From a virus: 35,399 bases of DNA. Position numbers and translations under genes: made by a program. The stretch is taken from the IMG/VR virus record IMGVR_UViG_3300017769_000046, positions 1 through 35,399 of that record, one strand, 5' to 3'. Position 1 is the first letter of the stretch, and each line of letters opens with the position of its first letter. The notes below the pieces were generated by a model. That model was given only the letters and a program-made list of their open reading frames with translations, did no database searches and had not been told where the DNA came from. Positions 1 through 35,399 of the stretch are shown here, in pieces.

Positions 1-123
1 CACTTGAGTTTACGACTAAAGCAGGATTGCTAAAAGTAGTGCCACCTGCCGTTGTTGATGGTGTAATTTCAAGAGCATTTGCAACGTTTTCTTGTATGGC
101 AATTTGAAAATTAGTATTAGATG
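1..123. repeat. terminal direct repeat copy 1 (circular-contig overlap / terminal redundancy)
   Basis: Read directly: bases 1-123 (cacttgagtttacgactaaagcagg...ttagtattagatg) are identical to 35277-35399. The flanking base 35276 lies before the repeat. Confidence 0.95.
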
Positions 124-3100
124 CAGTTTTAAATATATATTGCGGACTTGTACCACTATGAGTGATGTTCCCCGAACTATCGATGCGAAGACGTTCTGAA
201 GCGTTATTAAAAAATATTGTAGGTAGCGAATCGCTAGTGTTAGCAATAGTAAGTCCGCCAGCGTCAGCTAGAATATAGTTTTCGCTAGAACCATTTTTAC
301 CAAAGGCAAGTATTGAACTAGAAGTTCCGTTTAAAGAAAGGGATACACGATTAGAGGTTGTAAAGAAAGGCGAAGCCGTACCAATACCTACGTTGCCGTT
401 TTCCTGAATACGCATCAACTCAGTGCCATCGTCAGCAGTACCATTTGTTCTAAACCTATAACTAGAACTAGTACTACTATTATCTGAGTCAATCTGAAAA
501 ATCATTGAATCACCAGATATTAACCTACCACCAGCTACGCCTGTTTCTCCTATTTTAATAGTATTATGAACTTCGAGTGTTTGCGATGGCGAAGTCGTAC
601 CAATACCTAAACTTTTTGCACTTCTATCCCAAACCATATCTGCATTTTGAGATACCCCATAGAAGTTGACATCACCTGCACTTGTTATACGCATACGTTC
701 AGTACCGCTTGTATAACTTCTTATTTCACTAACAGTTCCACTTCCTGCTCTTAGCTGTAGTAAGCCACCATTACCATGTTCATTTCCAGAGGCGTGAATT
801 GATGCGCCTCTTGCGTCTCCACTAGCCCCTCCACCACTTATTATTATTTGAGCATTATCTGAGCCATCGCTAGTATCTGTAGATATTAAAGTATTTCCAC
901 TAAATTCAACGTCACCAGTAATCCCTACGTTGCCATCGTTAGTTATATTTAGTGTATCATTCCAGCTACTGCCATTATATTGACCAATTTTAAAAGTTCC
1001 ACTGCCAGGATTATTTAATCGTACATGACCACCTAAATAGAGATAACCAGTTCCAGTTGTTTCAAAAAGCGGAGCCACTACGTCACCTGCAAAAGTTGCG
1101 TTGTCATTTTCTCTAAATAAAGTTAAAACATCTGTTCCGTTTGTTGAGTTATCGTGTCTTTTAATGATAAAATCATTAGCAACTCCGTAATATCCTATAC
1201 TAAAACCATAAGTTGAAGTGCTTTCTTTAAAGTTTATGATACTATTCTTTTCAGCATTAGTTTGTAGAGTTAATGTTCTGTGATCGGATGATCCGTCTCC
1301 TAAGGTGATATCACCTGCAAGAGTTGCGTTACCTGACTCATTAACAACAAACAGTTCGTTGTTATTATTAATACTGTCTTGATTATGACCAATAACAAAC
1401 TTTTCACCAGTATTATTGTTATTACTATCTATATTTATTCTTAAAGAAGCTGGTGTATTAATTATACCATTTGTTAATGAGTTTGGGTCTAAGGTTAATT
1501 TACCATCAATATCTACATTACCACCAACATCAAGAGCATCCCCTATATAAGCATCACCACCTAGATATAGGTCTTTAAATCTCGCACCACTAGCACCTAA
1601 GTCTAAGGCGTTGTCGTTTGCTAAACCTGCTGATGTAGCAGGAACAATGCCAACACCACCAAACGCAAACCTTAAATAAGACTGGTCTGAGCCATTAGTA
1701 GTTCCTATGAATAAATCACCGTTAGCAGTACCAATACTTCCTATTTGTGCACTATCTTTGTAAAATCTTAGTATTTCACCATCGCTATTTAATCTTTTAA
1801 ATAAAGCAGTAAAACCACCATCACGAACTTGATAAGAAGCACCATTGGCAAAAAGAACGTGACCTGCGCCTGTACCAGTATCTGAATCAGCACCCACTAA
1901 TACGGTACCCGAACTATCGATGCGCATTTTTTCGCTACCCGATACTTGAAACTCTATATCTGTTCCAGTAGCATTATTTATTTGTGCATTACCTGTTCCT
2001 GTAGGACCAATGTTTATGCGACTAGCAATATTAGTTCCTACAGATTTCAGCCAAAGAGTATCAGTATAACCAGATGGGGCTTGTAATGTAAGTGGTGTAT
2101 TATTAACTGGCGAATCCGTACCAATACCTACGTTATTGCTAGTATCGATTGTTAGAGCAGTTGTGGAAGCTGTATTGTTATATATACTAAACTTATCATC
2201 AGTTCTTGTATTTACAAACCATGATTGAGCATCATTAGTTAAGTCAAGTTGGGCGGCTCCATTGGCGCCTGCATTTTCTATTTTTAATACTACGCCAGCA
2301 CCTGCTGATGAGGCTTTTACATGTAGTTTACCAACAGGATTAGTAGTACCAATACCTACGTTGCCTTCTTTGTTAATAACCATTCTTTGCTTAATACCGT
2401 TAGATGCTGCACCAGCGGTAGCAAATATTAATTCACCATCTATCCAGTTATTACTATTACCTGTACCAAGAGGAGATCTAGCATAAATACCTGCCATAGA
2501 AGCTTTATAATCTGTACTCCCTGTTTCTCTTTTTGCAAATAAAAGCATAGGTGAGAAACCACCAGCTGTATTATCATCATTGTATAATGTCAATCCAACG
2601 GTATCTGGTCCTGTAGTTGTACTGCTATCAGTGACCATTGTAATTCCTAAAGTTGAAGTATTAGTGACTTTAGGGTCGTAATCAGTGTTATCTACTGATG
2701 TATTTTTTATATATAAATTATTACCACCGTAATTAGTACTCCATGTAGGACCTACATAAAGTTTACCAACAGGATTAGTAGTACCAATACCTACGTTGCC
2801 GTTAGTTATAGCAACATTATCTTCAAAACTTATACGCACGCTACCGTCAAGCCCATAAAGGTCTCTGGTTGTGCTAGTCATTCCTAAAACATTAGTCCCA
2901 TCAGCCTCTCTTAATATGTCTGTTCTTATACGAGTAGCATATAAAACTCTCCACCTATTTGCAGTTCCACCTAAAAACTCAGTGTCATCAGCGTTAGGTA
3001 TTATATCTGCTGAAGTAAGCTGACCAGTAAGCGTACCACCTGTAATTGGTAAAAAGTCAGAAGCAGTAGGTATCGTGTCACTATTAAAGGCGTTGGAACC

Positions 3101-5854
3101 AAGTGTTCTGTATGTAACGTTTTTTCCTTGATCCCACATAAGGGCTACAGTGTTACTAGCACCCTCAGATATACCATTTAAATTTAGCGTATCTATAAAC
3201 GTAGTGGAAGGTATCTCTTGAACCTCAAGGTTATTAAACTCTACAGTTCCGTCATAAGCGATGTAACCTACACCACCCTCTGTAAATGTAGTGTCGTTTA
3301 TTTCACCATTGATAATCTGGTTTCCATCAATATCTACTCGTATCTTTTGACTAATGACTTGTACGGTAACTCTATGCCAGTTACCATCATCTATATCTAC
3401 ACCTGAAATAGCAGTACCATTAACGCCGCCTATAAGATAAGATTGACCTACATTAGTTTGTCTTTTCTGTACTCTTACCGTATTTGAACTGCGTATAATT
3501 ACATTGTAACCATCTTCTGATGGTGAGTTTTGACCATGATAAACTAACCCAAGATGAGTAGCGTTACTAGTCTTAAATGAGAAGGTAGCTATAAAGTTTT
3601 GGTGTTCAGCGTATGGTGTAGTAGCTGCATAAGAACTAGAGCTTTTAACAAACTTAACTGTCTTATCATCTATCCAAGTTGCTGTATAGTTACTACCTGA
3701 TTTTCTCCAACTAGCGTTACCGTTAGTATTTGTAAAAGAACCATCAATGTTTAGGTCATTTGATATATCTACATCACCTCCTGCTTCTATAGTAAGTCTT
3801 GAGGTATTATTAGTTGCGAAGACAAGGTTGCTGTTTTCACGATTCCAAAACACCGCACCTGTAGAGTCATCATACCCTATAGCAACACCATCCGTATCAT
3901 TAAGACCTGTTGCAGTAGTAGTAAACCTTGCTAAGGATAATGATGCTTTATTAATATGAAGTTTTTGAGTAGGAGCATTTAATCCAATACCTACATTTTG
4001 GTTACTTCTTAATATGGTTATAGCATCTAAATCATTTGCAGTATCTGAATCAGTGGCATCGTGCATACCCAAATGCAACTTATTAGCATCACCATCATAA
4101 TAAATATAACCACCCTGAAAGCCTGCGCTAGTAGATGAACCTTCTGTAAATCTTATTCTTCTGTTGCCTGTACCATTTACTGCTGTAGCATCTAAAAATA
4201 AATCACCACCTCTTAACTTTGTATCGCCAGTAAGAATACCACCTGACAATTCAAGATACCTGCTATCTAAGTCAACAGATGTTAAACCAGTAACATGACC
4301 GTAAGTATCTAGCGTTACGTCTTGAATAACTGAACCATTACTATTATCAACAGAAGCCTGAGAGCTGGTGTCAGAATGTGACAGTGTAACCGCCCCTGAT
4401 GTACCACCACCACCAAGACCTGCACCTGCTGTAACTCCAGTTATGTCACCAGCGCCAAACCCAGCATCATTATTAAAGACAGAAATATCTATCTCACTTA
4501 AAGCCTTTCTTTTATTGGTTATACCATCCAGTATAGCTATTTCATCTATGGCTGCTACGTCCTCTGTCATATCTACCAGTCTAGATATGTTTAATGATAG
4601 AGTAGCCACGCCACTTGTTGTACCCCCACTAAGCCCCGAAGTTGTGCTAGTCGCAATTTCAGTAATATCTCCTGCTGCTGACGCAGGCGGAATGTACTCA
4701 AACTGTTTATTAGTTTGATTGTAGCTTAAACTACCTGTACCACTAGCCGCACTTTGAACAACAAGGTTTGCCTTGTCAGGGACAAACTCATCAACTAAAT
4801 TCTTTGAATTTAAACCAGTAACATGACCATAGGTGTCTAGCGTCACATCTTGTATAACGGAAACGCCTGAATTATCTACAGATGATTGTGTACTTGTATC
4901 TGAATGGGTCAAGGTTACTGTGCCTGACGTTCCGCCACCACCAAGACCTGCACCTGCCGTAACGCCTGTGATTGTACCTACGTTTGATGTATAACCAAGA
5001 CCAGTAACATAAGATGCAATGGCTGAGCTAGTCATTATCATTGCATTACTAGAAACAAACCCTTCTGTACTGTCTAGCAACGTGGCGGCACTAAATTGTG
5101 ATGTTGTTAGCCCAGAAACATCAAGCGTAACTGCGCCACTTGTACCCCCACCAGTTAATCCTGTACCTGCCGTAACGCCTGTAATGTCTCCTGCGTTATT
5201 AGTATATCCTGCGCCATTAGTAATGTATTGATTGTCTAATGCCCCACCTTGACCTGTATATGTAGATAATGCAGTATTTTCAACGTTACCAATGCCTAAG
5301 CTAGTTAGTGCCGCAGAACCTGACTCAACACTACCATCTGCCTTCAAGAACTGAGATGAAGTACCGCCACTCTTTACTATTGAAGAACCAGTAATTACGC
5401 CACCACTTATGTTACCTGTGGATGTAAGCGCACCACTTACGTATAACGCATCATCTGTCTGCCATCTATCATTAGTCTCGTTCCATATAAACGATTTGGT
5501 AGCCCCAGTACCTCTTTTTACTTCTATACCAGCATTTTCTGTAGGATTAGTGGTGCTAGTTATGTCTGCATTTAGGGTTATTATAGAATCGCCAATATTG
5601 AGATGTTGCGAATTTATAAATGTGGTAGTTCCAGTGACAGTAAGGTTACCAGCAATAGTTAAGTCGCTAGTAAAAGAAACGGAGGTTGGTATATTGTTAA
5701 AGTCTTGTCTGAGTAATGGAAACCCAGCTTGAGTAGAGCCATCATGAACAACAAGAGTGTTTTTCGTTGTGTCTACTGTTATCTCTCCCTCAGCCCCAGT
5801 AAACGTGCTGTGCTGAGTGGTTGTACCTCTTCTACGTTTTACTTCTGTTGCCAT
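1..5854 (-). CDS. giant tail fibre protein, N-terminal 1951 codons (the ORF leaves the window at base 1 and continues at 35399)
   Basis: Absent from the ORF track because it has no stop on this side of the window. The reverse complement from the ATG at 5854-5852 reads MATEVKRRRGTTTQHSTFTGAEGEITVDTTKNTLVVHDGSTQAGFPLL, a conserved tail-fibre N-terminal motif resembling the Mtd N-terminal domain. I spot-checked the frame (plus-strand triplets starting at positions = 2 mod 3) on the lines starting 1, 1441, 2701, 3181, 3361 and 4501 and found no tta/cta/tca. Frame arithmetic through the overlap: 5854-121 = 5733 = 3 x 1911. Confidence 0.85.
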   Translation of the reverse strand, partial: MATEVKRRRGTTTQHSTFTGAEGEITVDTTKNTLVVHDGSTQAGFPLLRQDFNNIPTSVSFTSDLTIAGNLTVTGTTTFINSQHLNIGDSIITLNADITSTTNPTENAGIEVKRGTGATKSFIWNETNDRWQTDDALYVSGALTSTGNISGGVITGSSIVKSGGTSSQFLKADGSVESGSAALTSLGIGNVENTALSTYTGQGGALDNQYITNGAGYTNNAGDITGVTAGTGLTGGGTSGAVTLDVSGLTTSQFSAATLLDSTEGFVSSNAMIMTSSAIASYVTGLGYTSNVGTITGVTAGAGLGGGGTSGTVTLTHSDTSTQSSVDNSGVSVIQDVTLDTYGHVTGLNSKNLVDEFVPDKANLVVQSAASGTGSLSYNQTNKQFEYIPPASAAGDITEIATSTTSGLSGGTTSGVATLSLNISRLVDMTEDVAAIDEIAILDGITNKRKALSEIDISVFNNDAGFGAGDITGVTAGAGLGGGGTSGAVTLSHSDTSSQASVDNSNGSVIQDVTLDTYGHVTGLTSVDLDSRYLELSGGILTGDTKLRGGDLFLDATAVNGTGNRRIRFTEGSSTSAGFQGGYIYYDGDANKLHLGMHDATDSDTANDLDAITILRSNQNVGIGLNAPTQKLHINKASLSLARFTTTATGLNDTDGVAIGYDDSTGAVFWNRENSNLVFATNNTSRLTIEAGGDVDISNDLNIDGSFTNTNGNASWRKSGSNYTATWIDDKTVKFVKSSSSYAATTPYAEHQNFIATFSFKTSNATHLGLVYHGQNSPSEDGYNVIIRSSNTVRVQKRQTNVGQSYLIGGVNGTAISGVDIDDGNWHRVTVQVISQKIRVDIDGNQIINGEINDTTFTEGGVGYIAYDGTVEFNNLEVQEIPSTTFIDTLNLNGISEGASNTVALMWDQGKNVTYRTLGSNAFNSDTIPTASDFLPITGGTLTGQLTSADIIPNADDTEFLGGTANRWRVLYATRIRTDILREADGTNVLGMTSTTRDLYGLDGSVRISFEDNVAITNGNVGIGTTNPVGKLYVGPTWSTNYGGNNLYIKNTSVDNTDYDPKVTNTSTLGITMVTDSSTTTGPDTVGLTLYNDDNTAGGFSPMLLFAKRETGSTDYKASMAGIYARSPLGTGNSNNWIDGELIFATAGAASNGIKQRMVINKEGNVGIGTTNPVGKLHVKASSAGAGVVLKIENAGANGAAQLDLTNDAQSWFVNTRTDDKFSIYNNTASTTALTIDTSNNVGIGTDSPVNNTPLTLQAPSGYTDTLWLKSVGTNIASRINIGPTGTGNAQINNATGTDIEFQVSGSEKMRIDSSGTVLVGADSDTGTGAGHVLFANGASYQVRDGGFTALFKRLNSDGEILRFYKDSAQIGSIGTANGDLFIGTTNGSDQSYLRFAFGGVGIVPATSAGLANDNALDLGASGARFKDLYLGGDAYIGDALDVGGNVDIDGKLTLDPNSLTNGIINTPASLRINIDSNNNNTGEKFVIGHNQDSINNNNELFVVNESGNATLAGDITLGDGSSDHRTLTLQTNAEKNSIINFKESTSTYGFSIGYYGVANDFIIKRHDNSTNGTDVLTLFRENDNATFAGDVVAPLFETTGTGYLYLGGHVRLNNPGSGTFKIGQYNGSSWNDTLNITNDGNVGITGDVEFSGNTLISTDTSDGSDNAQIIISGGGASGDARGASIHASGNEHGNGGLLQLRAGSGTVSEIRSYTSGTERMRITSAGDVNFYGVSQNADMVWDRSAKSLGIGTTSPSQTLEVHNTIKIGETGVAGGRLISGDSMIFQIDSDNSSTSSSYRFRTNGTADDGTELMRIQENGNVGIGTASPFFTTSNRVSLSLNGTSSSILAFGKNGSSENYILADAGGLTIANTSDSLPTIFFNNASERLRIDSSGNITHSGTSPQYIFKTASNTNFQIAIQENVANALEITPSTTAGGTTFSNPALVVNSS

Positions 5855-5858
5855 AAAT

Positions 5859-6359
5859 TTATACGCTAGGTGCTTGTAAGTAAGTTGGTATTGATGTAAT
5901 GATAGATCTTCCTATAAAATCTAAGTTAGCTGATCCTCTACCGATTTGATTGGTATAAGCTGTTGCTAAATTAAGGTTTTCTGGTATCACCGCAAAGAAA
6001 TTAGGGCTTCCATCACTTAAAGAAATTTCAACATGAGAGTCCCCAGTAGTTACGAGTGCTGATACTAAATCACCTAAAAAAGCAGAGACTGTGCTTGATG
6101 TATAGGACTGACTTCCCTGAGTTTGTTTTTGTGCAGTAGAACTAAGCAGCTTTTGAAATGACAAAGAAACACTTACTCTGTATCCCCTCAAGTTAGACCT
6201 AAGGGTTCCATCTATAGCCTCGTCAAAAGCAGAATTAAAGTTAACTTGACCAATGTCAGCAACCATATTATTAATCGTAAATTTATACTTCCAGTCACTA
6301 GACGAATCAAAATCTTTTTGACGTATCTCTATGCTTGTTATTTTATTAGACAGAGCCAT
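5859..6359 (-). CDS. tail/baseplate-associated protein, paralogue of 6346..6858
   Basis: 166-aa ORF directly upstream of the fibre gene. It shares the block FNSAFDEAIDGTLRSNLRGYR with FNVPFDEAIDGTLRGNFRDFR in the neighbouring ORF. Its start overlaps the neighbour's stop. Confidence 0.6.
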   Translation of the reverse strand: MALSNKITSIEIRQKDFDSSSDWKYKFTINNMVADIGQVNFNSAFDEAIDGTLRSNLRGYRVSVSLSFQKLLSSTAQKQTQGSQSYTSSTVSAFLGDLVSALVTTGDSHVEISLSDGSPNFFAVIPENLNLATAYTNQIGRGSANLDFIGRSIITSIPTYLQAPSV

Positions 6360-6858
6360 AATCTAATTGAGTTGTAACAGTTTCATATATAAACCTATAA
6401 TCACGTTGGTCACCTGCTGCGCTTTCATTTATAAAACGAAAATCTTCAAAGTTCAACGTAATATCAAGACCAAGTTCAAAAGCTGTAAAGTTAATCTTTG
6501 GGACAAATAAGCCATGTTGATTTGCGTATTGAACACGACTTGCAAATCCATTATCTAAAACTACCCTAATTACGTTATCAGTATCAATACCGATATAAAT
6601 AAACTCCGCACCGTTTAAAAGGTCTGTGGCTATGTTATTGCAAATGGATCTGTACGTATCAGGAGTCGTGCATAAATTGTAGGTGAGTCCTATCTTTCTC
6701 CTGAAGTCCCTGAAATTGCCACGTAACGTTCCGTCTATGGCTTCATCGAATGGTACGTTAAAAAACTCTAGTTCGTCTGACTCAGAGTAATTTTGGATGG
6801 TTAGCGTCTGTGTACCGCCTGCATCTGTAATGACTACTATGTTGCTAACCTTAGCCAA
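6346..6858 (-). CDS. tail/baseplate-associated protein, paralogue of 5859..6359
   Basis: 170-aa ORF in the tail module with the shared FDEAIDGTLR block. Confidence 0.6.
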   Translation of the reverse strand: MAKVSNIVVITDAGGTQTLTIQNYSESDELEFFNVPFDEAIDGTLRGNFRDFRRKIGLTYNLCTTPDTYRSICNNIATDLLNGAEFIYIGIDTDNVIRVVLDNGFASRVQYANQHGLFVPKINFTAFELGLDITLNFEDFRFINESAAGDQRDYRFIYETVTTQLDYGSV

Positions 6859-6864
6859 TTTAAT

Positions 6865-8190
6865 TTATATTAAATACGCTTCACAATTTATTACATCATT
6901 CTCTAGGTCATACTCTAACATGGATGGTCTAGCCTTGAGTCCATTCACACTAGGGTGTATGTCACTACCAAACTTAATAAACTGATATGGCTTGAGTGTT
7001 CCAATACCAAATATTTTTAGGTTTATTAAGAATGGGGTTCTGTTGACTTCAGCGTCAGTAGCTATACCCAATGACTTTTTGTAAGAGTCTCTAGCTTGAT
7101 CCGATATATCAGTAACAATAGATGTGGTAAGGGCTGACCCACTAGCCCCACCTGCCGCAATCAATTCCCACTTTTGAGGAGACTCAGTAGTATCAAAAAC
7201 CAATGTGTGCATATCATTCACCTGAACATTTAGGACTACGTCCTGAGAGCCTACTGGGCTAACAATTTCTGTCGTTACCTTACTGAATGGGGTTCCACTA
7301 CTAACCGAATCGTCCCTTATAGCAAATGTTGTATTGAAGTTTTTAACGTTTCGTTTATTAAATGAAGTCCCAAAGTCCTGAAGATTAGATGCTGATAACG
7401 TTGTGAAGTGATCGGAATCAGATTCTGAATTAAAGTTTCTTCTAACATAGAATGCGAAGCCCATCATTGATCCCACAAATGCGCCCTCTATAATAGAAAA
7501 CTTCAATATATTTGTTTGTGCCTTCGCATAAGTGTTTATATCGGTTAAGTCAAACCCTATAACTTTAGTAGAATCACTGCCAGATGGTATTGAAGTAATA
7601 TTGGTTATTGTTTTAGTAAACTTGTGACCAATAATCTTTGTGGTAGGTGATGACCCCTGAGATAACAAAAACCCTTTTATAGCATCTGATGATGTTATTA
7701 GGTTTGGGTCAGCATTACTGCTTGAAGCTGTCGTAACTAACCCCTCTAAAGTCTCACCACTACCTGACCCATAATTTGTTACTTGAACATCATATCTAAG
7801 GGCTGCTTGTGCCTCTATAGTTACCTTTCTTGATACTCTATCATACTTACAACCTGCCTTAGTGCCTATAAAGAAGTCACTACCTGTCGGGGTCGTAACC
7901 TTTATTTGAATAGTGTCATTGTTACCCATTTGATTTATGGTGGTAAAAAGAAGATTACCATCACCCAACTTATCAAATATAGATATAGATATTTTTGATA
8001 GGTTTACCCTGAACTTAGATATATCATCTGAACTTTCTTGGACATCAAAGTCTTGAGATATTTTTGGCATATTAGCCATGAGCATGGTAGTGGTAGCCGT
8101 AGATACACCGCTACCCACTATCTGCACTTCGGCAGAAAATGTGCCAAACCTTCTAGTCACATTACCTGTTGAAGCTACAAATGTACCCAT
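6865..8190 (-). CDS. distal tail / baseplate protein (putative)
   Basis: 441-aa ORF whose ATG overlaps the tape-measure stop (TAATG). The call rests on its position immediately after the tape measure. Confidence 0.5.
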   Translation of the reverse strand: MGTFVASTGNVTRRFGTFSAEVQIVGSGVSTATTTMLMANMPKISQDFDVQESSDDISKFRVNLSKISISIFDKLGDGNLLFTTINQMGNNDTIQIKVTTPTGSDFFIGTKAGCKYDRVSRKVTIEAQAALRYDVQVTNYGSGSGETLEGLVTTASSSNADPNLITSSDAIKGFLLSQGSSPTTKIIGHKFTKTITNITSIPSGSDSTKVIGFDLTDINTYAKAQTNILKFSIIEGAFVGSMMGFAFYVRRNFNSESDSDHFTTLSASNLQDFGTSFNKRNVKNFNTTFAIRDDSVSSGTPFSKVTTEIVSPVGSQDVVLNVQVNDMHTLVFDTTESPQKWELIAAGGASGSALTTSIVTDISDQARDSYKKSLGIATDAEVNRTPFLINLKIFGIGTLKPYQFIKFGSDIHPSVNGLKARPSMLEYDLENDVINCEAYLI

Positions 8191-10499
8191 TATATCGAGG
8201 TTGAATTATTTAATAAATCCTGTTGACCCCTGTTGACTGCAACCGCTAACCCAGCTCTGTCTATGTTTACATCAACTGTTGGTGCGGCCTGATTCGTTAT
8301 GGGTGAACTAGGCAGGAAACTAACGCTTTGAGTGAACTGAGGAGCCTCTTGCCCTGCGTCTCCTGCGCCACTAGAGGCGCCACCACCACCACCTGCTCCA
8401 CCGCCCCCACCACCAAACTTGGCGGCTTTTATCTTCGCTAATTGTATAGCACCTAATGTTGCGGCAAATGCTACCTTCCCTGCCGAAGGTAAACTTGCAG
8501 TTATGGCTTTTGCGGTGTTTATAAGGGTTTCTGCAATAGCGGATCTTTTCTCTACTAAAAACTGTTTCTTTCTAATAGCCTCTAACTGTTTAGCAGATGC
8601 GCCCCTAGCCTTCGCTACCTGTAACTCACTCTTGAGTTCTGTTTTTCTTAAAGAAGTTATACCCTTGGTAAACTTTCCTGCCATATCTAATGCATCAATA
8701 AAATCTTCTTTACGACCATCATCATCAGCAGAATCATCACCCTCTATCAACTCTTTTCTTTTAGCTATAAAGTCTTCTAAAAGTTGTATTCGGTTAGCAA
8801 ATGTTGCGGCATCTGCATCTGTAACGGCATTAAGAAATTTTGTATTTAATTCTTTAATAGCTTCTTGAGCGAGGGCTATACTATTTGCTGCAGGATCTAA
8901 ATCTAGGTCAAGAGCCCCACTTATAGTATCATTTATTTCCTTGAAAGGGTCACCTACAGTAGTAAACATTTGCTCCATCTCAGTCACCATACCATTTACA
9001 GTGCTAAACATATTCTCTATAAATATAGGGGCATCCTTAAATCCATCTCCTAACTCTAAATCAACAGGTACCTCCATTTTAACACTTTCTCTAGCTAACT
9101 GTTCCGCACTTATACTTACACCATCCCTAGTTTCAGCAGCAAAATTTGCTATCATAGCATCAAGTTCGTCCATGTTATCAGCTAGAACAATCTCAGGTTC
9201 TACATTTAGACTAGCCCTCAAAGCGTCTATAAAACCCTCCTTTTGAAGCTTTAAACCAGCTAAACGTTGTGCATTGATTTCATCGGTTATATCTTCGTTA
9301 ATTTCAAGTATTTCATCATCTGTTTTTTCAATTTCAGCTTTAACGCTTTTAATTTCTTGTTCAATATCTAAAATTTCTTGTTTACTTCGTTTTAAGTCTT
9401 CAGAAGTAACAATTTCACCATTATGTAAAATCCTGAATCTATGTGCCGTTTTTAAGTTCTCTCTTTCTTGTTTAGCTTGTTCTAGTAAAATAGGCAAAGA
9501 AGCTTCATCTAATTTATTTGCCTCCTGTTTACCTTCAAGAATGTCAAGTAACAATTCTTTTTGACCTTTAAGACCCTCTATACCTAAATCAAATGCGCCA
9601 GTTTGCGCAATTATTTCAGCCGTTCTTCTAGCATCATCATTTAATTCTTCAAGTGCCTTTTCTAAATCCTCTGCTGATTCTTTGTTTTTACCTAATATTT
9701 GAGGCAACACAGTGGCTGCTGTAACTATTAGGTTTATAGCTATAAGAAGACCGCCAGGACCCATCAAAGATGCACCTAAAGCCTTAAAAGCATTTTTTAA
9801 ACCACCAGTTTTAGTGGTTAAGTTTCCCATTAGTTCAAAGGTAAAACCAATGTTGTTACCAATGGCTCGCATACCTTGAGCAAATCCTTGAGTAAATTGA
9901 GCAGAATCTTGAAGACCATCACTAAAAGAAAACAATGTTTGGTTGGCCGTAGAGAAGGCTTTATTGTTTGATGTTACACCTTTGCCTAATTTTTTCTTGG
10001 CTCTTGCTAATCTTTGAGTGGCTGTTAGTAACTCTTCAGTTTCTTGTTCCTGACCTTGAAGGGCAGCCCTACCTCTCTGAAGTACAGCTATCAATTCTTT
10101 TTCTTGATTCTCAAGCCTTGCTGATTGACCAAGTAGTTTGGTACGTTCAGCAGTGTTTAGCTTATTACTTTGAATAAACTTATCTAAACTAATCTTTTCT
10201 TCTCGTATCTGCTTTATCCTAGCACGAGCCTCTAGGTTTGTCTTGGCTATAGTCCTTAACTCATTTTTAGTAGCCTTTAATTTATTATTTATAGATGTTT
10301 TTACCTTATTATTGGAGGCTATAAATAGTCCATTCTTCTCTACTATACCCTTGACCTCTTCACCAAGTTTACCAGTAGACCTATTGGTTTCGTTTACCGC
10401 ATCATTTAATTCAGTTAAGGATTTGGCTGCGCCTGCCCCCCCTAAATCATCAATTTTAGAGGCAATCTTAAACTTAATATTATAAATTAAATCGGGCAT
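8190..10499 (-). CDS. tail tape measure protein
   Basis: 769 aa, long coiled-coil-like E/K/L/Q-rich sequence, hydrophobic central segment (GPGGLLIAINLIVTAATVLPQIL) and a Gly-rich tract (GGGGGGAGGGGGASSGAG). It lies directly after the frameshifted chaperone pair. Confidence 0.85.
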   Translation of the reverse strand: MPDLIYNIKFKIASKIDDLGGAGAAKSLTELNDAVNETNRSTGKLGEEVKGIVEKNGLFIASNNKVKTSINNKLKATKNELRTIAKTNLEARARIKQIREEKISLDKFIQSNKLNTAERTKLLGQSARLENQEKELIAVLQRGRAALQGQEQETEELLTATQRLARAKKKLGKGVTSNNKAFSTANQTLFSFSDGLQDSAQFTQGFAQGMRAIGNNIGFTFELMGNLTTKTGGLKNAFKALGASLMGPGGLLIAINLIVTAATVLPQILGKNKESAEDLEKALEELNDDARRTAEIIAQTGAFDLGIEGLKGQKELLLDILEGKQEANKLDEASLPILLEQAKQERENLKTAHRFRILHNGEIVTSEDLKRSKQEILDIEQEIKSVKAEIEKTDDEILEINEDITDEINAQRLAGLKLQKEGFIDALRASLNVEPEIVLADNMDELDAMIANFAAETRDGVSISAEQLARESVKMEVPVDLELGDGFKDAPIFIENMFSTVNGMVTEMEQMFTTVGDPFKEINDTISGALDLDLDPAANSIALAQEAIKELNTKFLNAVTDADAATFANRIQLLEDFIAKRKELIEGDDSADDDGRKEDFIDALDMAGKFTKGITSLRKTELKSELQVAKARGASAKQLEAIRKKQFLVEKRSAIAETLINTAKAITASLPSAGKVAFAATLGAIQLAKIKAAKFGGGGGGAGGGGGASSGAGDAGQEAPQFTQSVSFLPSSPITNQAAPTVDVNIDRAGLAVAVNRGQQDLLNNSTSI

Positions 10500-10501
10500 A
10501 T

Positions 10502-11091
10502 TTATTTTTCCTTAGGTCTATGATAGGCCTCACGAGCCATCATAGCTTGTGTTATATCCTCTATTGAACACTTGGCTTCAAGTTCCTTTGCTCGCAGTGG
10601 ATCAAAGTCGGCAAGAACGTAACAGTAATAAACGTACGCTCCGCCAACTTCAATCACTAGGTCATTAGGTGCGAGCAGGTCTAATGACTCTAAGCTACTC
10701 CGACTCCATCTATAGGTACTTGACGCCTGTTCGTAAAAAAATCCCACGCTTCCTCAAGCGTCCCCAACTCTAGTTCGTCAGATTTCCATACCTTACTATC
10801 TATAGGAGCCTCTAGTTTCATGGAGTGTTCTGCGGTAAACTTACAGTACTCAGCACGAAACTCTTCATCCAACTTCCAATCATTTATAGCCTGAAGGTCT
10901 TCCACGCTATAATCGTCAATGGTTGTATCGTCATTAATCAACTTCTTATAGGTCTTAGGATGTTTTGCCTTGTACCAATTAAGAAGCATTTGTCTTCTTT
11001 CTTCTACTATCTTATCAAAACGAATAGGGGTCGGTTTGACTTCAAACGCAACCCCCATAAATTCGCCCTGAACTTTTGTTATACGTCCCAT
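10502..11091 (-). CDS. tail assembly chaperone GT-like fusion made by a -1 programmed frameshift (119 aa + 77 aa = 196 aa predicted)
   Basis: The -1-frame ORF 10502..10747 has no convincing start of its own (GTG inside the overlap). Slippery heptamer T_TTT_TTT is in phase (codons GAT TTT TTT ACG). The stop lies 2 nt before the tape-measure ATG. Confidence 0.65.
10690..11091 (-). CDS. tail assembly chaperone (G-like, zero-frame product)
   Basis: 133-aa ORF between the tube-like protein and the tape measure. It overlaps a -1-frame ORF at a T7 run. Confidence 0.75.
   Translation of the reverse strand: MGRITKVQGEFMGVAFEVKPTPIRFDKIVEERRQMLLNWYKAKHPKTYKKLINDDTTIDDYSVEDLQAINDWKLDEEFRAEYCKFTAEHSMKLEAPIDSKVWKSDELELGTLEEAWDFFTNRRQVPIDGVGVA
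10735..10741 (-). promoter_or_regulatory. -1 programmed ribosomal frameshift slippery site U_UUU_UUU
   Basis: Seven A on the plus strand at 10735-10741. Phase check: 11091-10743 = 348 = 3 x 116, so the codons are GA[T TTT TTT]. Confidence 0.65.
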
Positions 11092-11115
11092 AAATTGCTC
11101 GCTTTATTTTAGGGT

Positions 11116-12027
11116 TTATGTGTTAAATTCTTGAAAGTTATAATCTGATGTTGTTGCTGTTCCAGATGTTATCTGTAACGATGGTTTTTTGATTTTTATA
11201 TCTGACTCTCCTTTTATATTAAAGGCCACCTCAACATGATGAGTGGCAGCTGGAAGAGTCAGTGTCGCTAACTTAACACCAGTGCTAGTAAGATTCACTG
11301 ATGAAGCAACCCCAACTGTTGAACCACTAGAATTTTTTGCGGTCAATGTCATTGTTGGGATTGGATCAACATCTGTAGCATCTGTTACCTCTACAAAAGC
11401 AGTTAGTTGCTTCCCTTCAAATGGGAAGTATACCTTGTGAGTAAAGGTCGCTGTAGCTGATGTAGCCGCATCATTTTTTAACCTTTGTTTTTCATTACCT
11501 GAATTGAAAGTAGATGTACTCGTCAAGGTAGTTCCTGCCACAGTCCAGTTAGCTGCCCTTGATGGTGATCCTACACCCAACCACTTATACAATGAAAACC
11601 CATTTTTAGTATACGACATAGAAGCTGAGTGTTCCCCAGTTGTGCTATTGTATCCCCCAATAGATTCCCTAGGGCTGTTGAACCTGAAAGAAAGGTTATC
11701 CTCAAATCCCTCCGCCTTTGTCAAGGTTCCCTCAGCCTGAAGTATTAATCCATCCACACTAAACCCTGTAAACACAAGATTAGTCTGATTGTCGACCCAT
11801 GTTTTTAATTGAGTGGCTGTAGAACTATCATATAAACCAGTCAGAGTTATATTGTATACTTTGCTTGTTATAACTTCTCTGTTATTTTCTATGATAGCAG
11901 TATTCGCCTCAATAGATATTACTTGCCTTGATGCCTCAGCAGCACCTTCCTGAACCACAGAAAACGTTTTAGTTTCACTAAGTGCAGAAGTATTGACAAG
12001 TGCTAACTTGTTTAATTGTGCTGGCAT
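11116..12027 (-). CDS. major tail (tube) protein, putative
   Basis: 303-aa ORF immediately upstream of the G/GT chaperones, which is the canonical siphovirus order. S/T-rich C-terminal half. Confidence 0.55.
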   Translation of the reverse strand: MPAQLNKLALVNTSALSETKTFSVVQEGAAEASRQVISIEANTAIIENNREVITSKVYNITLTGLYDSSTATQLKTWVDNQTNLVFTGFSVDGLILQAEGTLTKAEGFEDNLSFRFNSPRESIGGYNSTTGEHSASMSYTKNGFSLYKWLGVGSPSRAANWTVAGTTLTSTSTFNSGNEKQRLKNDAATSATATFTHKVYFPFEGKQLTAFVEVTDATDVDPIPTMTLTAKNSSGSTVGVASSVNLTSTGVKLATLTLPAATHHVEVAFNIKGESDIKIKKPSLQITSGTATTSDYNFQEFNT

Positions 12028-14117: not shown

Positions 14118-15311
14118 TTAGGCCTTAGCTACGTTGCCTCGAATATAACGCCCACCTAGGTCTGGTCTGAATACTTTCGCTCCGTAAAGAACTTCAATAA
14201 GTACATCAGCACCTGACTTGGTTTCTTCTATAGTCAAAGTGTAGTTTACGTTGTTCATTGGCTCAAAACCAGCAGCTCTACGAACACCAGAACCTGAACC
14301 GCTATCTACTGAAGGCATAACCGCAGTAACTAGGGCAAGGGCAGATGGGTCATAGAAGAACTGCTCACGACCAGTGTCACCTGAAGCAATATCAACTGGG
14401 TTGATAGTAGCGTTGTTGGCGAGCGCTTTTCGTAATGGCTCTTTGATGGTTAATACAGTACCAGTTTGGCTTTCTACAGTGTAGAAGTCATCAGTACCTT
14501 TAGCAGAACCGAAAGTAACAATGTCACCCTCAGCTAGAGATACAGTTGCTGCAGAACCACTACCATTGTCGATAGTTAATGCAGTTTGACCGATAGCTTC
14601 TGTGGCTGCAAGAACAGCGTCAGTTACAGTAGCTGCTGTGTGGTCACTTCCTTCGTTATCTACGAAGAAGTCAAAACCATAAGCACGAGCCATAGATCCG
14701 CCCAACTGAATGTCAGCAGAACCACGTTGGTCAGCTTGTTGGAATATGTTTAGTGTAGTAAGGTCTTTCTCTACAAATGGGTCAATAACCATCATTAGGT
14801 TATCAGTAGTGAACTTACGAGAAGCCATGATTTTTCTAGCTTCTGCAAGGTCATTAGCATCCATTACAGTAGAGTCAGTGTTGTTGTCAGCGAAAGCTAC
14901 TTCAAAAGCCTTACGAGCCTCAACCTTCACGTCACTATTGATTTGGTCAATAAGTTGGTGTAGTCTTGGCACGAAGTGCTGCTGTACTAAGTCAGGAAGG
15001 GCGAACTTTTGGTCAGCCTTGTCGATGCTGAATCCAGCATAGTAATGCTTGTTGATTACTAATTGCTCTTCACTAGCATTAGGGGTTCCTAAGCTATAGC
15101 TTCCTGAGTATGCACTAGGAGCGCCAGTAGGCTTTACTGCACGAGTAATACTTACAGTCTTGTTACGTGCTGCAACTAGACCTTCGATGGATGCGCCAGC
15201 TACGTTAGTAACGGCTTTGGATACCATTGGTCGGTTTGGGTACTGGTTAGCTAGTGCAACCTCAACAAACGCCTCTGGTTCGTAAATGGAAAAATTACTA
15301 TTAATTGCCAT
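14118..15311 (-). CDS. major capsid protein (P22-coat-like / HK97-fold, putative)
   Basis: 397 aa, lying after the scaffold-like ORF and followed by a terminator. Codon usage looks highly expressed. Motifs such as ARAYGFDFFVDNE and an inserted G/S/T-rich domain resemble P22-type coats (from memory). Confidence 0.75.
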   Translation of the reverse strand: MAINSNFSIYEPEAFVEVALANQYPNRPMVSKAVTNVAGASIEGLVAARNKTVSITRAVKPTGAPSAYSGSYSLGTPNASEEQLVINKHYYAGFSIDKADQKFALPDLVQQHFVPRLHQLIDQINSDVKVEARKAFEVAFADNNTDSTVMDANDLAEARKIMASRKFTTDNLMMVIDPFVEKDLTTLNIFQQADQRGSADIQLGGSMARAYGFDFFVDNEGSDHTAATVTDAVLAATEAIGQTALTIDNGSGSAATVSLAEGDIVTFGSAKGTDDFYTVESQTGTVLTIKEPLRKALANNATINPVDIASGDTGREQFFYDPSALALVTAVMPSVDSGSGSGVRRAAGFEPMNNVNYTLTIEETKSGADVLIEVLYGAKVFRPDLGGRYIRGNVAKA

Positions 15312-20622: not shown

Positions 20623-20633
20623 TACAAACTAAA

Positions 20634-22965: not shown

Positions 22966-22981
22966 GCTTTAAAGTATAGAC

Positions 22982-24535: not shown

Positions 24536-24536
24536 A

Positions 24537-32550: not shown

Positions 32551-32820
32551 CTATTCGCCACTCTCTGACTCTTCGACAGGTGTCTCTTCCTCTACTTCTG
32601 GCTCTTCTATAGCAGGTAACCCTGCCCAAAAAGCATTGATAGCTGACTGGTAGTGATCTGGTAAATCTGTAATCGTAGCATCCCTCTGAAAGTATTGCTT
32701 CTCTCTGGCGGTTGCTACTTCTACTTCGTTATCGTCAACAAATACCTTGCTGACTCGTACTGATACTGACCCATTAGGGTCGATACTTACTGTTTCGTAT
32801 TGGGTTGTTATATGGCTCAT
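32551..32820 (-). CDS. hypothetical protein, paralogue of 32826..33104 (possible fibre-associated or assembly factor)
   Basis: Shares Y..(I/V).I...G.V..R...., ITDLP and (F/Y)W blocks with the neighbouring gene. Acidic tail. Confidence 0.55.
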   Translation of the reverse strand: MSHITTQYETVSIDPNGSVSVRVSKVFVDDNEVEVATAREKQYFQRDATITDLPDHYQSAINAFWAGLPAIEEPEVEEETPVEESESGE

Positions 32821-32825: not shown

Positions 32826-33104
32826 CTATGTGTTTTGGTTGTTAACTTCTTCATTGACCGCATCGTTTTCTGCTTGAATGTGCGCAGTCCAATTATCTTT
32901 AATTTCTTGTGTCCAGTAAGTGCTAACTGTATCCTGAACGTTTTGAGGTAAATCTGTAATATCGTCACTAGGAACTCTGATTTCTCTATGATGCCCCTCA
33001 GACAAAATATTACCATCTTCAGTAATCTTGGTAGTCTTTCTTAAAAAAACTTTACCAAGTTCTGTAATTTCTATTTTTGTGTAGGTTTCTGTTTTTTCTA
33101 ACAT
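32826..33104 (-). CDS. hypothetical protein, paralogue of 32551..32820
   Basis: 92 aa, starts 5 nt after the fibre stop. Carries ...DDITDLPQNVQDTVSTYWT... Confidence 0.55.
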   Translation of the reverse strand: MLEKTETYTKIEITELGKVFLRKTTKITEDGNILSEGHHREIRVPSDDITDLPQNVQDTVSTYWTQEIKDNWTAHIQAENDAVNEEVNNQNT

Positions 33105-33108: not shown

Positions 33109-35399
33109 TTAACCTGTTCTGTATGTTATTTGAAAAATTAAATCGTTTGAGTTTGAAGAACTACTTGTATCTGTTGGACTTAAATTTGAGATATTAGAAG
33201 TAGTTGATGAGTGATAATACAAATATATTCTTTCAGTTCCATGTATGGCTAACATCTTTGGCTCTTCGCCACCAAATGCAGTAGAATACCCAATAGCGCC
33301 TGCATAAAAACTAGGTCCTGAAAGGATGTCTGTTACGGTAAAAGGTATTCCATCAACATATACCGCACCTGAAGAACTAGACCATGAAAGACCACTTGTT
33401 TCTATACGACCCCACAAGTGAACAACGTTTCCAACTTTTATATATCTACCTGCTGTTACAGATGTATATGTAACATTTGTAACTGTTGCTGAAGAAGAAG
33501 AGTATGTTGGTGTCCAAGAGCCTTCTTCATAGTCATCAAGGGCATTGGCAGCTGCTGTATCTCCATTGAAAGTGATACCACCACTTGATAAGATGCGTAC
33601 CTTCTCTGAACCACCGACTTGCCAAATTATATTAGCAGAACTCTGCGTTGCGTTCTGAATGATGTCGGCAGAACTACCTATACGAAATATGTCGTAACAA
33701 TTTGATACGTCATATCCTACCCTTAATCTAGCTGAACCACCACTACTATTATTTAATACATTTATCGCAGTTGCACTAGATTGATTTTTTATAATCTCTA
33801 ATGTAGCACTAGGACTATTTGTACCAATACCTACGTTACCTTGAAAGTTAATATTTAAAGGTGTAGCACCCCCACCATATCCACCTAGCCCTAAATATCC
33901 TACTCCATCTGCTAAAATGTGAAAGTAATCTCCACCTATAAAATCACCATTAGAACCATCTAAGAATATTGCGGCTCCATTATTATACTCTTGTAGAGTG
34001 ATAGAACTACTACCATCACTAACTTCAAATTTTGCTACAGGACTAGTAGTACCAATCCCTACGTTACCACCTGCTTGAATAGTGAACTGGTCACCAACGC
34101 CATTTTCATGTAACGCAAAGTCACCATTAGTATATGACTTTAACCACCATTGATTTACATTTGAACTATCATTAAGTCCTATTTTATAATCAGTACTACT
34201 CTTAAAATACACCTGACCGCTTGAGTCAATGCGCATACGTTCAGTATTATTGGTAGCAAATCTTAAATATCCATTTTTATAGTTCCAAAATTCTGCATTT
34301 GTACTGTCAGGGCTACCTATTATAAAGTTTGCATTGTCGGATGAATCATATCCAGCAAGTTGCGTTCTACTATTACTAGTGGTTTCTAGTTTTAAAATAT
34401 TTGTGCCTGCTTTTATATGAAGTGGATAGTTGGGATTCGTTTCGCCAATACCTACTTTACCGTCATTTGTGAAACGAACCATTTCACCATTATCTGACTT
34501 ATAAAACTTAAATGTTCCTGCATCAGTTATGCTTAATTTATCTGCTCCACTTCCGTTAGCAACCTTAAAAGCAAAGTTTGAATCAGAAGTCCCACTTGAA
34601 CGAATGCCTAGCTTTATATTTGAGCCAAGTGATGCCCCAATACTTACGTTACCATCACCCTGTATGGTTAATCTAGTAGCTAAACCCCCATTATATGGCT
34701 TTGTTTTAAACTGAAGCTCTCCTGCGGCAGTAGCTAAAGTTCCTTCTTTTTGAGCAGTGATACTAGAAACTATTGCGTCACCTGAATCAGCTGCATTGGT
34801 AAAGTTAATAGCACCAATGTCTGCTTGCGTACCAGCCACGCTATAACCAGTCATTCTTAATACTGCTTGAGATGCAGAATTGGTTACACCTGATACTCTA
34901 GCTGTCGTAGTTGAACCCCCTGAGTTTAAGTCTAAAGTATAATCAGGGGCTGGGTTACCTATACCTAATCTAGTCTCACTAGAATCAAAGTGAAAGTTTT
35001 CTACTTGACTAACACTTCTAAAAGCAACGTCACCATTTGAATGGATGCGCATACGTTCTGAACCGCCTGCGTATATTATTTGATTGACTCCGCTTCCACC
35101 GTAATAAATCATGTCTTCACTAGCGTCAAGTTGGATGTAAGACACTTGACTTCCAGCATTATGGAATCTTACAGATGCGTAACCTCCACCATCCTTTTCA
35201 ATAACTAAATCACTTGAAGTCCCCGCATCCAAATGTAAAGTACCATCTATGGATGATGTACCAATACCTACGTTACCACTTGAGTTTACGACTAAAGCAG
35301 GATTGCTAAAAGTAGTGCCACCTGCCGTTGTTGATGGTGTAATTTCAAGAGCATTTGCAACGTTTTCTTGTATGGCAATTTGAAAATTAGTATTAGATG
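33109..35399 (-). CDS. giant tail fibre protein, C-terminal part (same ORF as 1..5854; total (5854+2168)/3 = 2674 codons including the stop)
   Basis: The track ORF 33109..35232 only begins at the first in-window Met; the frame stays open up to 35399. It contains repeated ...MRI(D/H)S(S/N)G(N/D)V.. GNVGIGT modules. The C-terminus reads DDYEEGSWTPTY...GRYIKVGNVVHLWGRI, a motif I recognise from phage fibre receptor-binding tips. Confidence 0.85.
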   Translation of the reverse strand, partial: SNTNFQIAIQENVANALEITPSTTAGGTTFSNPALVVNSSGNVGIGTSSIDGTLHLDAGTSSDLVIEKDGGGYASVRFHNAGSQVSYIQLDASEDMIYYGGSGVNQIIYAGGSERMRIHSNGDVAFRSVSQVENFHFDSSETRLGIGNPAPDYTLDLNSGGSTTTARVSGVTNSASQAVLRMTGYSVAGTQADIGAINFTNAADSGDAIVSSITAQKEGTLATAAGELQFKTKPYNGGLATRLTIQGDGNVSIGASLGSNIKLGIRSSGTSDSNFAFKVANGSGADKLSITDAGTFKFYKSDNGEMVRFTNDGKVGIGETNPNYPLHIKAGTNILKLETTSNSRTQLAGYDSSDNANFIIGSPDSTNAEFWNYKNGYLRFATNNTERMRIDSSGQVYFKSSTDYKIGLNDSSNVNQWWLKSYTNGDFALHENGVGDQFTIQAGGNVGIGTTSPVAKFEVSDGSSSITLQEYNNGAAIFLDGSNGDFIGGDYFHILADGVGYLGLGGYGGGATPLNINFQGNVGIGTNSPSATLEIIKNQSSATAINVLNNSSGGSARLRVGYDVSNCYDIFRIGSSADIIQNATQSSANIIWQVGGSEKVRILSSGGITFNGDTAAANALDDYEEGSWTPTYSSSSATVTNVTYTSVTAGRYIKVGNVVHLWGRIETSGLSWSSSSGAVYVDGIPFTVTDILSGPSFYAGAIGYSTAFGGEEPKMLAIHGTERIYLYYHSSTTSNISNLSPTDTSSSSNSNDLIFQITYRTG
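35277..35399. repeat. terminal direct repeat copy 2 (identical to 1-123)
   Basis: Same 123-nt string as the window start. It lies inside an open reading frame, so it is more likely an assembly overlap of a circular or permuted genome than a functional DTR. Confidence 0.95.

Follow-up and report, generated by a model that had tools for sequence, protein, structure and literature searches.

Relation to described fibre systems

The closest described counterparts of the gene considered here, a predicted tail-fibre gene in a stretch of viral DNA of 35,399 nucleotides (nt) (IMG/VR record IMGVR_UViG_3300017769_000046, positions 1 to 35,399; the whole of this stretch is referred to below as the window), are found in other phages and in a bacterium. 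The receptor-binding protein Mtd of Bordetella phage BPP-1 (PDB 1YU0; Pfam PF18454) is homologous to the first ~109 amino acids (aa) of the window's fibre, the N-terminus of which is probably the same trimeric β-prism attachment domain, judging from the alignments described below. Mtd is a 381-aa protein whose C-type-lectin end is diversified by a reverse-transcriptase retroelement, whereas the window's fibre is seven times longer and has a different β-sandwich tip. A second counterpart is the mosaic adhesive trimer (MAT) fibre Bd2133 of Bdellovibrio bacteriovorus (PDB 8OND), of which the crystallised C-terminal part consists of two β-helix domains and a tip; the 370-residue chain of this construct measures 142-150 Å, and another fibre, full-length Bd3182, ~550 Å (PMC10769870). 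Both systems are long chimeric fibres with distal ends that have been swapped in the course of evolution, and the GNVGIGT-bounded modules of the window's fibre match residues 662-1,031 of the crystal construct. MAT fibres are, however, bacterial surface proteins of ~1,000 aa with other N-terminal and tip folds, and some of them carry S74 domains.

The exchange of fibre cassettes is known from P2-type fibre mosaics, while the distal long-tail-fibre adhesins of T-even phages were reportedly found by Tétart and co-workers in 1998 to recombine at conserved 'His-box' motifs. The window's fibre resembles the T-even adhesins in having short conserved motifs between variable segments as joints for host-range swapping, and in being followed by a small gene that co-varies with the tip (gp38 or Tfa-type assembly proteins in the known cases). 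The motifs, folds and phage type differ, and the T-even segments are split over gp34-gp37, whereas a single 2,673-aa chain is encoded here, so that the resemblance is one of mechanism, not of sequence. Towards the distal end, the DDYEEG-type tip and the modules preceding it are shared with fibres of marine T7-like cyanophages and uvMED phages (S-RIP2/KBS-P-1A, S-CBP3 and S-SBP1; 37.9% identity over 214 aa for the S-RIP2 fibre) and of Cellulophaga and Tenacibaculum phages, which differ in their length of 200-1,400 aa, in belonging to podovirus or other virions, and in a T7-fibre rather than Mtd_N N-terminus. Celeribacter phage P12053L gp55 (683 aa) likewise contains one VIQDVTLDTYGHVTGL-type module, which shares 70.8% identity with that of the window, and a small gene bearing the annotation 'tail fiber assembly' lies downstream of it, but P12053L is a podovirus (Zobellviridae), and its fibre is a quarter of the length with that one module in common.

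A single fibre gene spans the ends of the assembled genome

In positions 1-5858 of the window the open reading frame (ORF) listing contains short plus-strand ORFs only, an apparent gene desert that arises because the listing leaves out ORFs running off the end of the source sequence. It was originally predicted, from the sequence alone, to be the 5' end of one tail-fibre gene that wraps the junction of the window's ends. The two ends match exactly over 123 base pairs (bp) (1-123 = 35277-35399), a pair that constitutes the sole long repeat in the whole window (repeat family D3). On the minus strand, the frame starting from the ATG at 5854-5852 is free of stop codons down to base 1 (1,951 codons plus 1 nt), and upon removal of one copy of the overlap and rotation of the resulting 35,276-bp circle it runs on without interruption to a stop at 33109-33111. 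The gene is thereby made up of a 5' part (1..5854, minus strand; codons 1-1951 and the first base of codon 1952) and, in the circularised translation, a 3' part (33109..35276, minus strand; the rest of codon 1952 to codon 2673 and the stop). The overlap corresponds to gene nt 5732-5854, and its second copy (35277..35399, no strand assigned) repeats codons 1911-1951. The complete ORF comprises 2,673 codons (8,022 nt including the stop), or 22.7% of the genome, and its predicted product has a mass of 278 kDa and an isoelectric point of 4.6. In-frame stops are present upstream of the ATG, which lies 4 nt past the stop of the preceding gene. By our estimate, at ~0.066 stops per random codon for this base composition, an open frame of 2,673 codons would arise by chance with a probability of ~1e-79. 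The start, stop, codon count and genome share of about 23% given in the original prediction all agree with these values.

The contiguity of the two ends is supported by independent assemblies. L088, a 29,090-bp contig (JGI 3300017726), matches gene nt 5357-8022 at 99.9% identity without gaps, and three Logan contigs (L091-L093; SRR10522318, SRR10522317 and SRR8675869) match gene nt 5668-8022. All four span the overlap and read straight through a single copy of it. The 3' part of the gene is matched at 99.9-100% by these four contigs and by L096 and L097, while L086 is identical to gene nt 1-3084 (100%). Uninterrupted fibre orthologs of 2,134, 2,810, 3,119 and 2,841 aa are furthermore encoded between the same flanking genes in four relatives, L001, L002, L003 and L004, respectively. 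In tblastn comparisons of the flanks, the genes upstream of the fibre in these relatives correspond to those at the left end of the window, namely the tape-measure protein gene followed by genes for proteins of ~420, 170 and 166 aa, and those downstream to the right end of the window, with proteins of 84, 88 and ~50 aa and, farther downstream on the opposite strand, a 69-aa protein, a DnaA_C-domain protein, a 126-aa protein, an M15 peptidase and DnaB. The fibre N-terminus aligns from residue 1 with the orthologs P0001, P0002 and P0088, and protein alignments pass through the junction residues 1911-1951 in P0090 (aa 1801-2190; 48% identity) and P0088 (aa 1749-2245; 39% identity). As contigs cross the junction, four relatives carry intact orthologs and protein alignments continue through it, the ends are contiguous, as originally predicted.

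With its terminal overlap, its full gene set, relatives of 35.3-37.0 kilobases (kb) and a junction crossed by other contigs, the window is a complete, circularly assembled ~35.3-kb genome of an uncultured marine siphovirus-like phage, and the 123 bp that occur at both ends are an artefact left by the assembly of a circular or circularly permuted genome and add no further sequence. The assembler would have cut the circle by chance inside the largest gene. An internal repeat of the gene was also considered as the source of the overlap and rejected, since the longest exact repeats within the gene reach ~25-30 nt; the longest repeat families there measure 48 nt (96% identity) and 163 nt (76%). Base 1 of the window, where the assembler made its cut, adjoins the linker copy GTACCAATACCTACGTTACC at 35258-35277, which encodes the GNVGIGT of aa 1952. 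In many cases, contigs of near-identical strains likewise start or stop within the fibre gene (L086, L088 and L091-L097), which suggests that it is a frequent assembly breakpoint.

The expectation that annotation of linear contigs would split or miss the gene fits the content of a collection of 5.8 billion proteins, in which neither fragment of the window's fibre is found (an exact look-up of the 707-aa end fragment gave no match) and the fibres of near-identical strains are represented only by cut products of 1,028, 887 and 784 aa. We conclude, with a probability of roughly 0.87, that a single real tail-fibre gene of 2,673 codons, built as a mosaic of cassettes, lies across artificial genome ends and that its front part accounts for the apparent gene desert.

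Domain architecture of the fibre

The 2,673-aa product is predicted to be a phage tail fibre on the basis of its PHROGs matches, which include phrog_18345 (e-value: 1.2e-34; seven stretches), the tail-fibre family phrog_9942 (e-value: 3.4e-26) and, over aa 1-104, the 'tail protein' family phrog_9648 (e-value: 1.1e-14), and of its position in the tail module right after the tape-measure candidate and tail-tip genes, which is conserved in L001-L004. NCBIfam contains no family for either half of the fibre. A Peptidase_S74 chaperone fibre or endosialidase-type spike was rejected, as PF13884 was not detected at E<=0.1; this domain is present in many partial homologs of the fibre. Among deposited phages, the C-terminal third resembles the fibres of Pelagibacter phages and cyanophages.

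The N-terminal Mtd-like anchor covers aa 1-109 (5528..5854, minus strand), with the Pfam Mtd_N core at aa 5-41 (window 5732-5842) and the sequence KRRRGTTTQHSTFTGAEGEITVDTTKNTLVVHDG at aa 6-39. It matches PF18454 over all 37/37 profile positions (e-value: 1.4e-14; Bitscore: 54.1, cut-off 26.3) and residues 1-106 of Bordetella phage Mtd in PDB 1YU0 (e-value: 6.5e-14), while in the comparison with deposited phages it shares 67% identity with residues 1-52 of BPP-1 Mtd. Downstream, at aa 222-530 (4265..5191, minus strand), lie the GDITGVTAG...VIQDVTLDTYGHVTGL modules, delineated by motif counts and repeat family D2. GDITGVTAGxGLxGGGTSGxVTL occurs in the fibre in two strict and four relaxed copies, and the modules include an internal duplication of 163 nt (4282-4444 and 4810-4972; 76% identical).

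An internal laminin G (LamG)/concanavalin A (ConA)-like lectin module at aa 714-878 (3221..3715, minus strand) is recognised by PF06439 (3keto-disac_hyd, DUF1080, ConA-like; e-value: 6.3e-8; Bitscore: 33.3, cut-off 26.8). Laminin_G Pfam matches in this segment are weak, and the segment alone matches laminin LG and SHBG structures in PDB (1e-4 to 3e-3) as well as a DUF1080-type 'putative glycosylhydrolase'. The module is bracketed by the recurring joints LSGGILTG (aa 537-544) and LPITGGTLTG (aa 945-954). The block containing it (aa 534-960) shares 94% identity with P0001 and with P0002 alike, and the N-terminal 947 aa including the lectin are 85% identical to P0001, while the distal half is replaced in both of these orthologs. 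A conserved proximal lectin with a replaced distal half fits a proximal glycan binder combined with a strain-specific distal tip. The anchor, the GDITG modules and the lectin-like module of the original prediction were all recovered by these searches.

The remainder of the fibre up to the tip is a shaft of β-helix-type modules with GNVGIGT, ERMRIDSSG and RFKDLYL boundaries. Its proximal part (aa 1006-1951; 2..2839, minus strand) was delimited with a motif hidden Markov model (HMM), 8OND, phrog_18345 and the breakpoints in contigs L099 and L100, and its distal part (aa 1952-2530; 33541..35276, minus strand) with the motif HMM, 8OND and the breakpoints in L003, L004, L089, L090, L094 and L095. 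The two parts match the β-helix region of Bd2133 in PDB 8OND at 2e-5 and 2.6e-6, respectively. The GNVGIG-type profile finds ten full copies (aa 619, 1019, 1164, 1240, 1820, 1952, 2160, 2224, 2355 and 2431) and three degenerate ones near aa 1641, 1752 and 2058; six copies are strict GNVGIGT, six ERMRIxSxG half-motifs are present in the fibre, and LSGGILTG/LPITGGTLTG and RFKDLYL recur as further joints. This accords with the dozen GNVGIGT-delimited repeats first counted (ten clear and about three degenerate copies), although the units are not equal tandem repeats: inter-motif intervals range from 64 to ~400 aa, and GNVGIGT is a junction motif between unequal modules, not a tandem repeat unit.

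The C-terminal tip domain (aa 2531-2673; 33112..33540, minus strand) starts at LDDYEEGSWTP and is a compact all-β domain presumed to be the receptor-binding end. DDYEEGSWTP occurs once, at aa 2532, in line with the C-terminal tip originally proposed, and marks a widespread conserved domain: the search recovered 3,503 tip homologs, for the most part metagenomic proteins of 250-430 aa of marine origin (TARA, uvMED), none of which carries a Pfam domain, and their alignment shows no or almost no variation in the F, D, L, DDYEEG and P columns. An AlphaFold2 model of aa 2425-2673 is all-β, with a mean predicted local distance difference test (pLDDT) score of 85.5 and 84-97 per 10-residue block over the tip, and on this model the tip would be a small β-sandwich. 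Neither Pfam nor NCBIfam has a model for it, and no solved structure resembles it closely; matches to PDB structures are weak (Det7 tailspike 6F7D, Foldseek E 1.3e-3; Noumeavirus NMV_189, target template-modelling score 0.6), while in the predicted structures of BFVD it matches marine phage tail fibres down to 4.6e-12. A target of a diversity-generating retroelement (DGR) was considered for the tip and rejected, as no C-type-lectin (CLec) domain, no second DNA copy of the tip and, among ORFs of at least 240 aa, no reverse transcriptase was found, and the tip is a different β-sandwich.

Module boundaries are conserved as DNA and coincide with breakpoints

New in the present analysis are the nucleotide-level conservation of the module boundaries and the placement of homology breakpoints on them. 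The 15-mer AACGTAGGTATTGGT, which encodes NVGIG, is present in 6/10 boundary copies of the window's fibre gene and in 19/34 NVGIG copies of the L001-L004 fibre genes, where ~2.5% would be expected from background codon usage by our estimate. Gene by gene, the Ile codon of NVGIG is ATT in 8/8, 5/5, 9/9, 6/8 and 12/12 copies, compared with a background of 0.31-0.43 (per-gene p from 3.5e-2 down to 8.6e-7), and Asn as AAC and Val as GTA show a similar excess. The conserved string often extends to ~30 nt (GGTAACGTAGGTATTGGTACTACTAGTCCT), and a near-identical DNA string is likewise found at copies of the ERMRIDSSG linker. The DNA of the NVGIG core is conserved beyond the amino-acid requirement.

Blocks shared with environmental phages at 90-99.5% nucleotide identity begin and end at the linkers GNVGIGT(T/S)SP, ERMRIDSSG, LPITGGTLTG and RFKDLYL. 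Contigs L089, L090 and L095, from three samples, have a common alternative upstream sequence, and their identity to the window of 96-99.5% begins exactly at GAACGTATGCGCATTGACTCAAGCGG, which encodes ERMRIDSSG at aa 2297, while L094 switches to high identity at the GNVGIGT of aa 2355. L003 and L004 share with the window sequence that begins at ERMRI (aa 2025) and ends at GNVSIG (aa 2160), and a further block in L003 is bounded by the GNVGIGT copies at aa 2355 and 2431. The distal half contains five distinct internal breakpoints, each of which (5/5) lies within 22 nt of the centre of a motif, an outcome with a chance probability of ~4e-5. This DNA-level analysis replaced a protein-level test on the ends of high-scoring segment pairs, which was weakly positive (50% within 20 aa of a motif vs 27% expected; 24 non-independent ends). 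In the proximal half, the block shared with L099 (90% identity) runs from EKMRIDSSG to RFKDLYL. L100 belongs to a 45,476-bp contig (IMGVR_UViG_3300046466_000354) with different genes downstream of the fibre, and its fibre (locus 523-3195) contains the lectin (gene nt 2062-2830) at 98.4%, gene nt 3934-4129 at 99.5% and gene nt 4286-5256 at 99.4%; the modules between these common blocks are replaced, with edges at LPITGGTLTG, EKMRIDSSG, RFKDLYL and LGIGT. As the blocks of high identity are bounded by linkers, the fibre gene evolves by cassette exchange. These data indicate that the fibre is a recombining array of cassettes and that exchange between lineages has been very recent.

The phage encodes its own recombination pair at 26560-28064 (plus strand), consisting of a DUF3799/PD-(D/E)XK nuclease of 283 aa and an ERF single-strand annealing protein of 146 aa, which may be relevant to recombination at short linkers. 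A stronger proposal, that the nucleotide-conserved linkers GGTAACGTAGGTATTGGTAC(T/G)ACTAGTCCT and GAACGTATGCGCATTGACTCAAGCGG are selected recombination signals working with the phage ERF and PD-(D/E)XK exonuclease, is speculative and on balance unlikely.

Alternative explanations

Several observations weigh against the reading of the locus as one giant, cassette-built tail fibre. Conservation of linker codons could reflect selection for translational accuracy at invariant residues, and conserved linkers are also sites where short-read assemblers could form chimeras, which tempers the conclusions on both module order and recombination. Gene nt 3085-3933, 4130-4285 and 5257-5356 have no near-identical independent contig, and the order of the mid-gene modules therefore rests on one assembly. 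The single 278-kDa virion protein, its trimeric state and its position on the tail are read from sequence, the AlphaFold2 model of the lectin block (aa 534-960) reached a pLDDT of 39 on a shallow alignment of seven sequences and was not used, and p441, p170 and p166, the putative tail-tip proteins encoded next to the fibre, have no PHROGs or Pfam family. A homology search to deepen the lectin-block alignment returned six matches only and was swamped by low-complexity word matches.

It is accordingly conceivable that the ORF is real while its module order is in part a chimera of co-occurring strains joined at 20-30-nt linkers. Near-identical linker DNA occurs about ten times in the gene, many contigs of the clade break in or beside it, and the three stretches named above are without near-identical support. 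Nevertheless, independent assemblies recover ~84% of the gene at >=99.4% identity (L086, L088, L091-L093, L096 and L097, in the same order, and the two central L100 blocks), exact repeats do not exceed ~30 nt (the longest family measures 48 nt at 96%) and are well under the 123 bp of the overlap, and the frame is open across all joints. The variant represented by L089, L090 and L095, at least, is probably real, because the same breakpoint and alternative upstream sequence were assembled in three samples. We consider a partly chimeric order improbable. Less credible still is that the protein is some other virion-surface or secreted adhesin, such as a head fibre or decoration protein, assembled from the same module types. 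An N-terminal homolog in cyanophage S-CAM1 is labelled 'putative hoc protein' in some records and similar modules occur in the bacterial surface fibres of Bdellovibrio; the S-CAM1 record is, however, annotated 'tail protein' in RefSeq, the gene follows directly upon the tape-measure and tail-tip genes in all relatives, the best PHROGs are tail fibre or tail, and Mtd_N is the attachment domain of the tail-fibre-borne receptor binder in BPP-1. Lastly, the 123-bp repeat could be a true direct terminal repeat of a linear virion genome, in which case the fibre frame would be intact only in the circularised or concatemeric form. The repeat is exact, and exact terminal repeats of 100-250 bp are known in some phages, but independent contigs read through the junction with a single copy, the contigs of relatives end elsewhere with the gene internal, and the overlap is more simply the circle-closing signature of an assembler; to our knowledge, physical genome ends inside the largest structural gene would also be unprecedented. 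We regard this last explanation as having next to no likelihood, and retain the reading of a single fibre gene interrupted by artificial ends.

Genes flanking the fibre

The tail-tip genes upstream of the fibre (5859..10499, minus strand) are conserved in order in L001-L004. They comprise a 769-aa tape-measure candidate (8190-10499, minus strand), which belongs to a family of unknown function (phrog_30292), followed by p441 (6865-8190, minus strand) and the paralogs p170 (6346-6858, minus strand) and p166 (5859-6359, minus strand). As PHROGs and Pfam are uninformative, the roles of these four proteins are deduced from position and size, and together they are presumed to be the attachment site of the fibre. 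p170 and p166 have the motif F(D)EAIDGTLRxNxR in common; within the clade, the former shows 65-93% identity and the latter is variable at ~50-60%. The tape-measure candidate is ~30% identical to its counterparts in L004 and L002, and p441 shares 36% with L003 and 29% with L002, while no match at E<=1e-5 was found in L004. Taken by best local alignments, the tape-measure candidate and p441 (6865-10499) are thus ~23-45% identical to relatives although the coat protein (14118-15311) is 97.5% identical to that of L004. Hypervariability in this genome extends over the whole tail-tip region and is not confined to the fibre.

Directly downstream of the fibre lie two paralogous genes, d92 (92 aa, phrog_6228; 32826..33104, minus strand) and d89 (89 aa, with an acidic C-terminus; 32551..32820, minus strand), the latter of which is 91-96% conserved in the clade. 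In L001-L004 the fibre gene is likewise followed by members of the d92/d89 family, and in the unrelated L100 a phrog_6228 gene occupies this place as well. The d92 products share 64-69% identity with relatives that have a different tip, and 100% with those whose tip is 96% identical (L089 and L090). The region that the window has in common with L089 and L090 consists of fibre aa 2296-2673, d92 and the start of d89 (window 34245-32591; 96.5% identity), after which the genomes diverge. The tip and d92 move as one unit. Since fibre-assembly genes elsewhere follow the fibre, e.g. gp54 of P12053L, we infer by analogy that d92 may be a tip-specific partner or assembly factor.

The clade and the rest of the genome

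A coat protein of 80-99% identity is encoded by at least 109 relatives in IMG/VR, while among 50,697 deposited phage records no tblastn match to the coat and portal proteins and no megablast match to window positions 1-12000 was found. A scan of GTDB genomes with the coat protein gave no prophage or host clue, and a literature search retrieved nothing on the GNVGIGT or DDYEEG strings and no paper on this clade, which is an abundant but uncultured marine phage group. The fibre varies widely within it. While the coat protein is 97.5% identical to that of L004, the fibre is rearranged: its first 73 residues are 85% identical to P0088, the fibre of L004, and only scattered blocks follow. Fibre lengths in the clade are 2,134-3,175 aa on contigs of 36-37 kb. 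The original prediction of an unusually large fibre is therefore correct relative to cultured phages, but within the clade this size is the rule; the giant fibre is typical of the clade, not unique, and represents a very large case of the known mosaic tail-fibre class. IMG/VR contigs showed no clear tendency to terminate where the fibre gene starts.

The genome encodes a terminase in pieces, a portal, a P22-type coat protein, tail proteins and an M15 endolysin candidate, as well as DnaB, ERF, the PD-(D/E)XK nuclease and a replication-O-like protein for replication and recombination. The portal, the P22-type coat and the 769-aa tape-measure candidate, with no sheath protein recognised among the scanned ORFs, agree with the siphovirus-like character first proposed. 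The large terminase (19003-21437, minus strand) appears to be divided into an ATPase part of 267 aa (phrog_38; 3e-20), a T5orf172/GIY-YIG-like endonuclease ORF of 168 aa, a 115-aa ORF with a weak Resolvase-N match (3e-5) and a nuclease part of 261 aa. The endonuclease ORF is present in L012, L022, L028, L051 and L055 and absent in ~16 other relatives, a patchy distribution as expected for a mobile homing-endonuclease gene, while the 115-aa ORF occurs in all relatives at 42-97% identity, compared with ~90-98% for its flanks. No intron was detected in the terminase region by Rfam, which also found nothing elsewhere in the window. The G+C content falls to 0.21-0.26 at ~22,700-25,700, compared with 0.37-0.40 in the rest of the genome. 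This stretch, which contains a DUF7178 gene (23334-24068) and several small ORFs, lies near the switch in gene orientation, beside the replication-O-like gene (25806-26234), and three short tandem repeats are located at 22910-22965, 23376-23447 and 25902-25958.

Proposed function and significance

We suggest that the protein would form a homotrimeric fibre, by homology to the systems described above, with its N-terminal Mtd-type β-prism domain docking onto a tail tip built by p441, p170 and p166. From there a long shaft of heterogeneous trimeric β-helix modules may extend over ~100-160 nm, as scaled from the Bdellovibrio fibres. A laterally exposed LamG/ConA-like module probably binds a common surface glycan reversibly, and the strain-variable β-sandwich tip probably binds a specific receptor. 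The long reach of such a fibre would raise the rate of host encounter in dilute seawater.

The main host-range gene of an abundant marine clade is routinely lost or truncated in the annotation of linear contigs, most clade contigs breaking in or near it. The gene provides a natural example of cassette-wise fibre evolution, in which phages with 97% identical capsids have fibres that differ by 1,000 aa in length, and in which modules of ~99% nucleotide identity are common to the window phage and a different 45-kb phage, with their joints at linkers of 15-30 nt. These linkers mark natural module boundaries and could guide the engineering of receptor-binding proteins, while the DDYEEG tip, with >3,500 homologs, is an obvious structural target for the study of marine phage-host recognition. 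Were the linkers indeed selected recombination signals, the phage would possess a built-in, high-frequency shuffling of fibre modules between co-infecting phages of different lineages, a recombination-based counterpart of host-range diversification by DGRs, and recombination at linkers would explain how a fibre could grow to >3,000 aa in a 36-kb genome.

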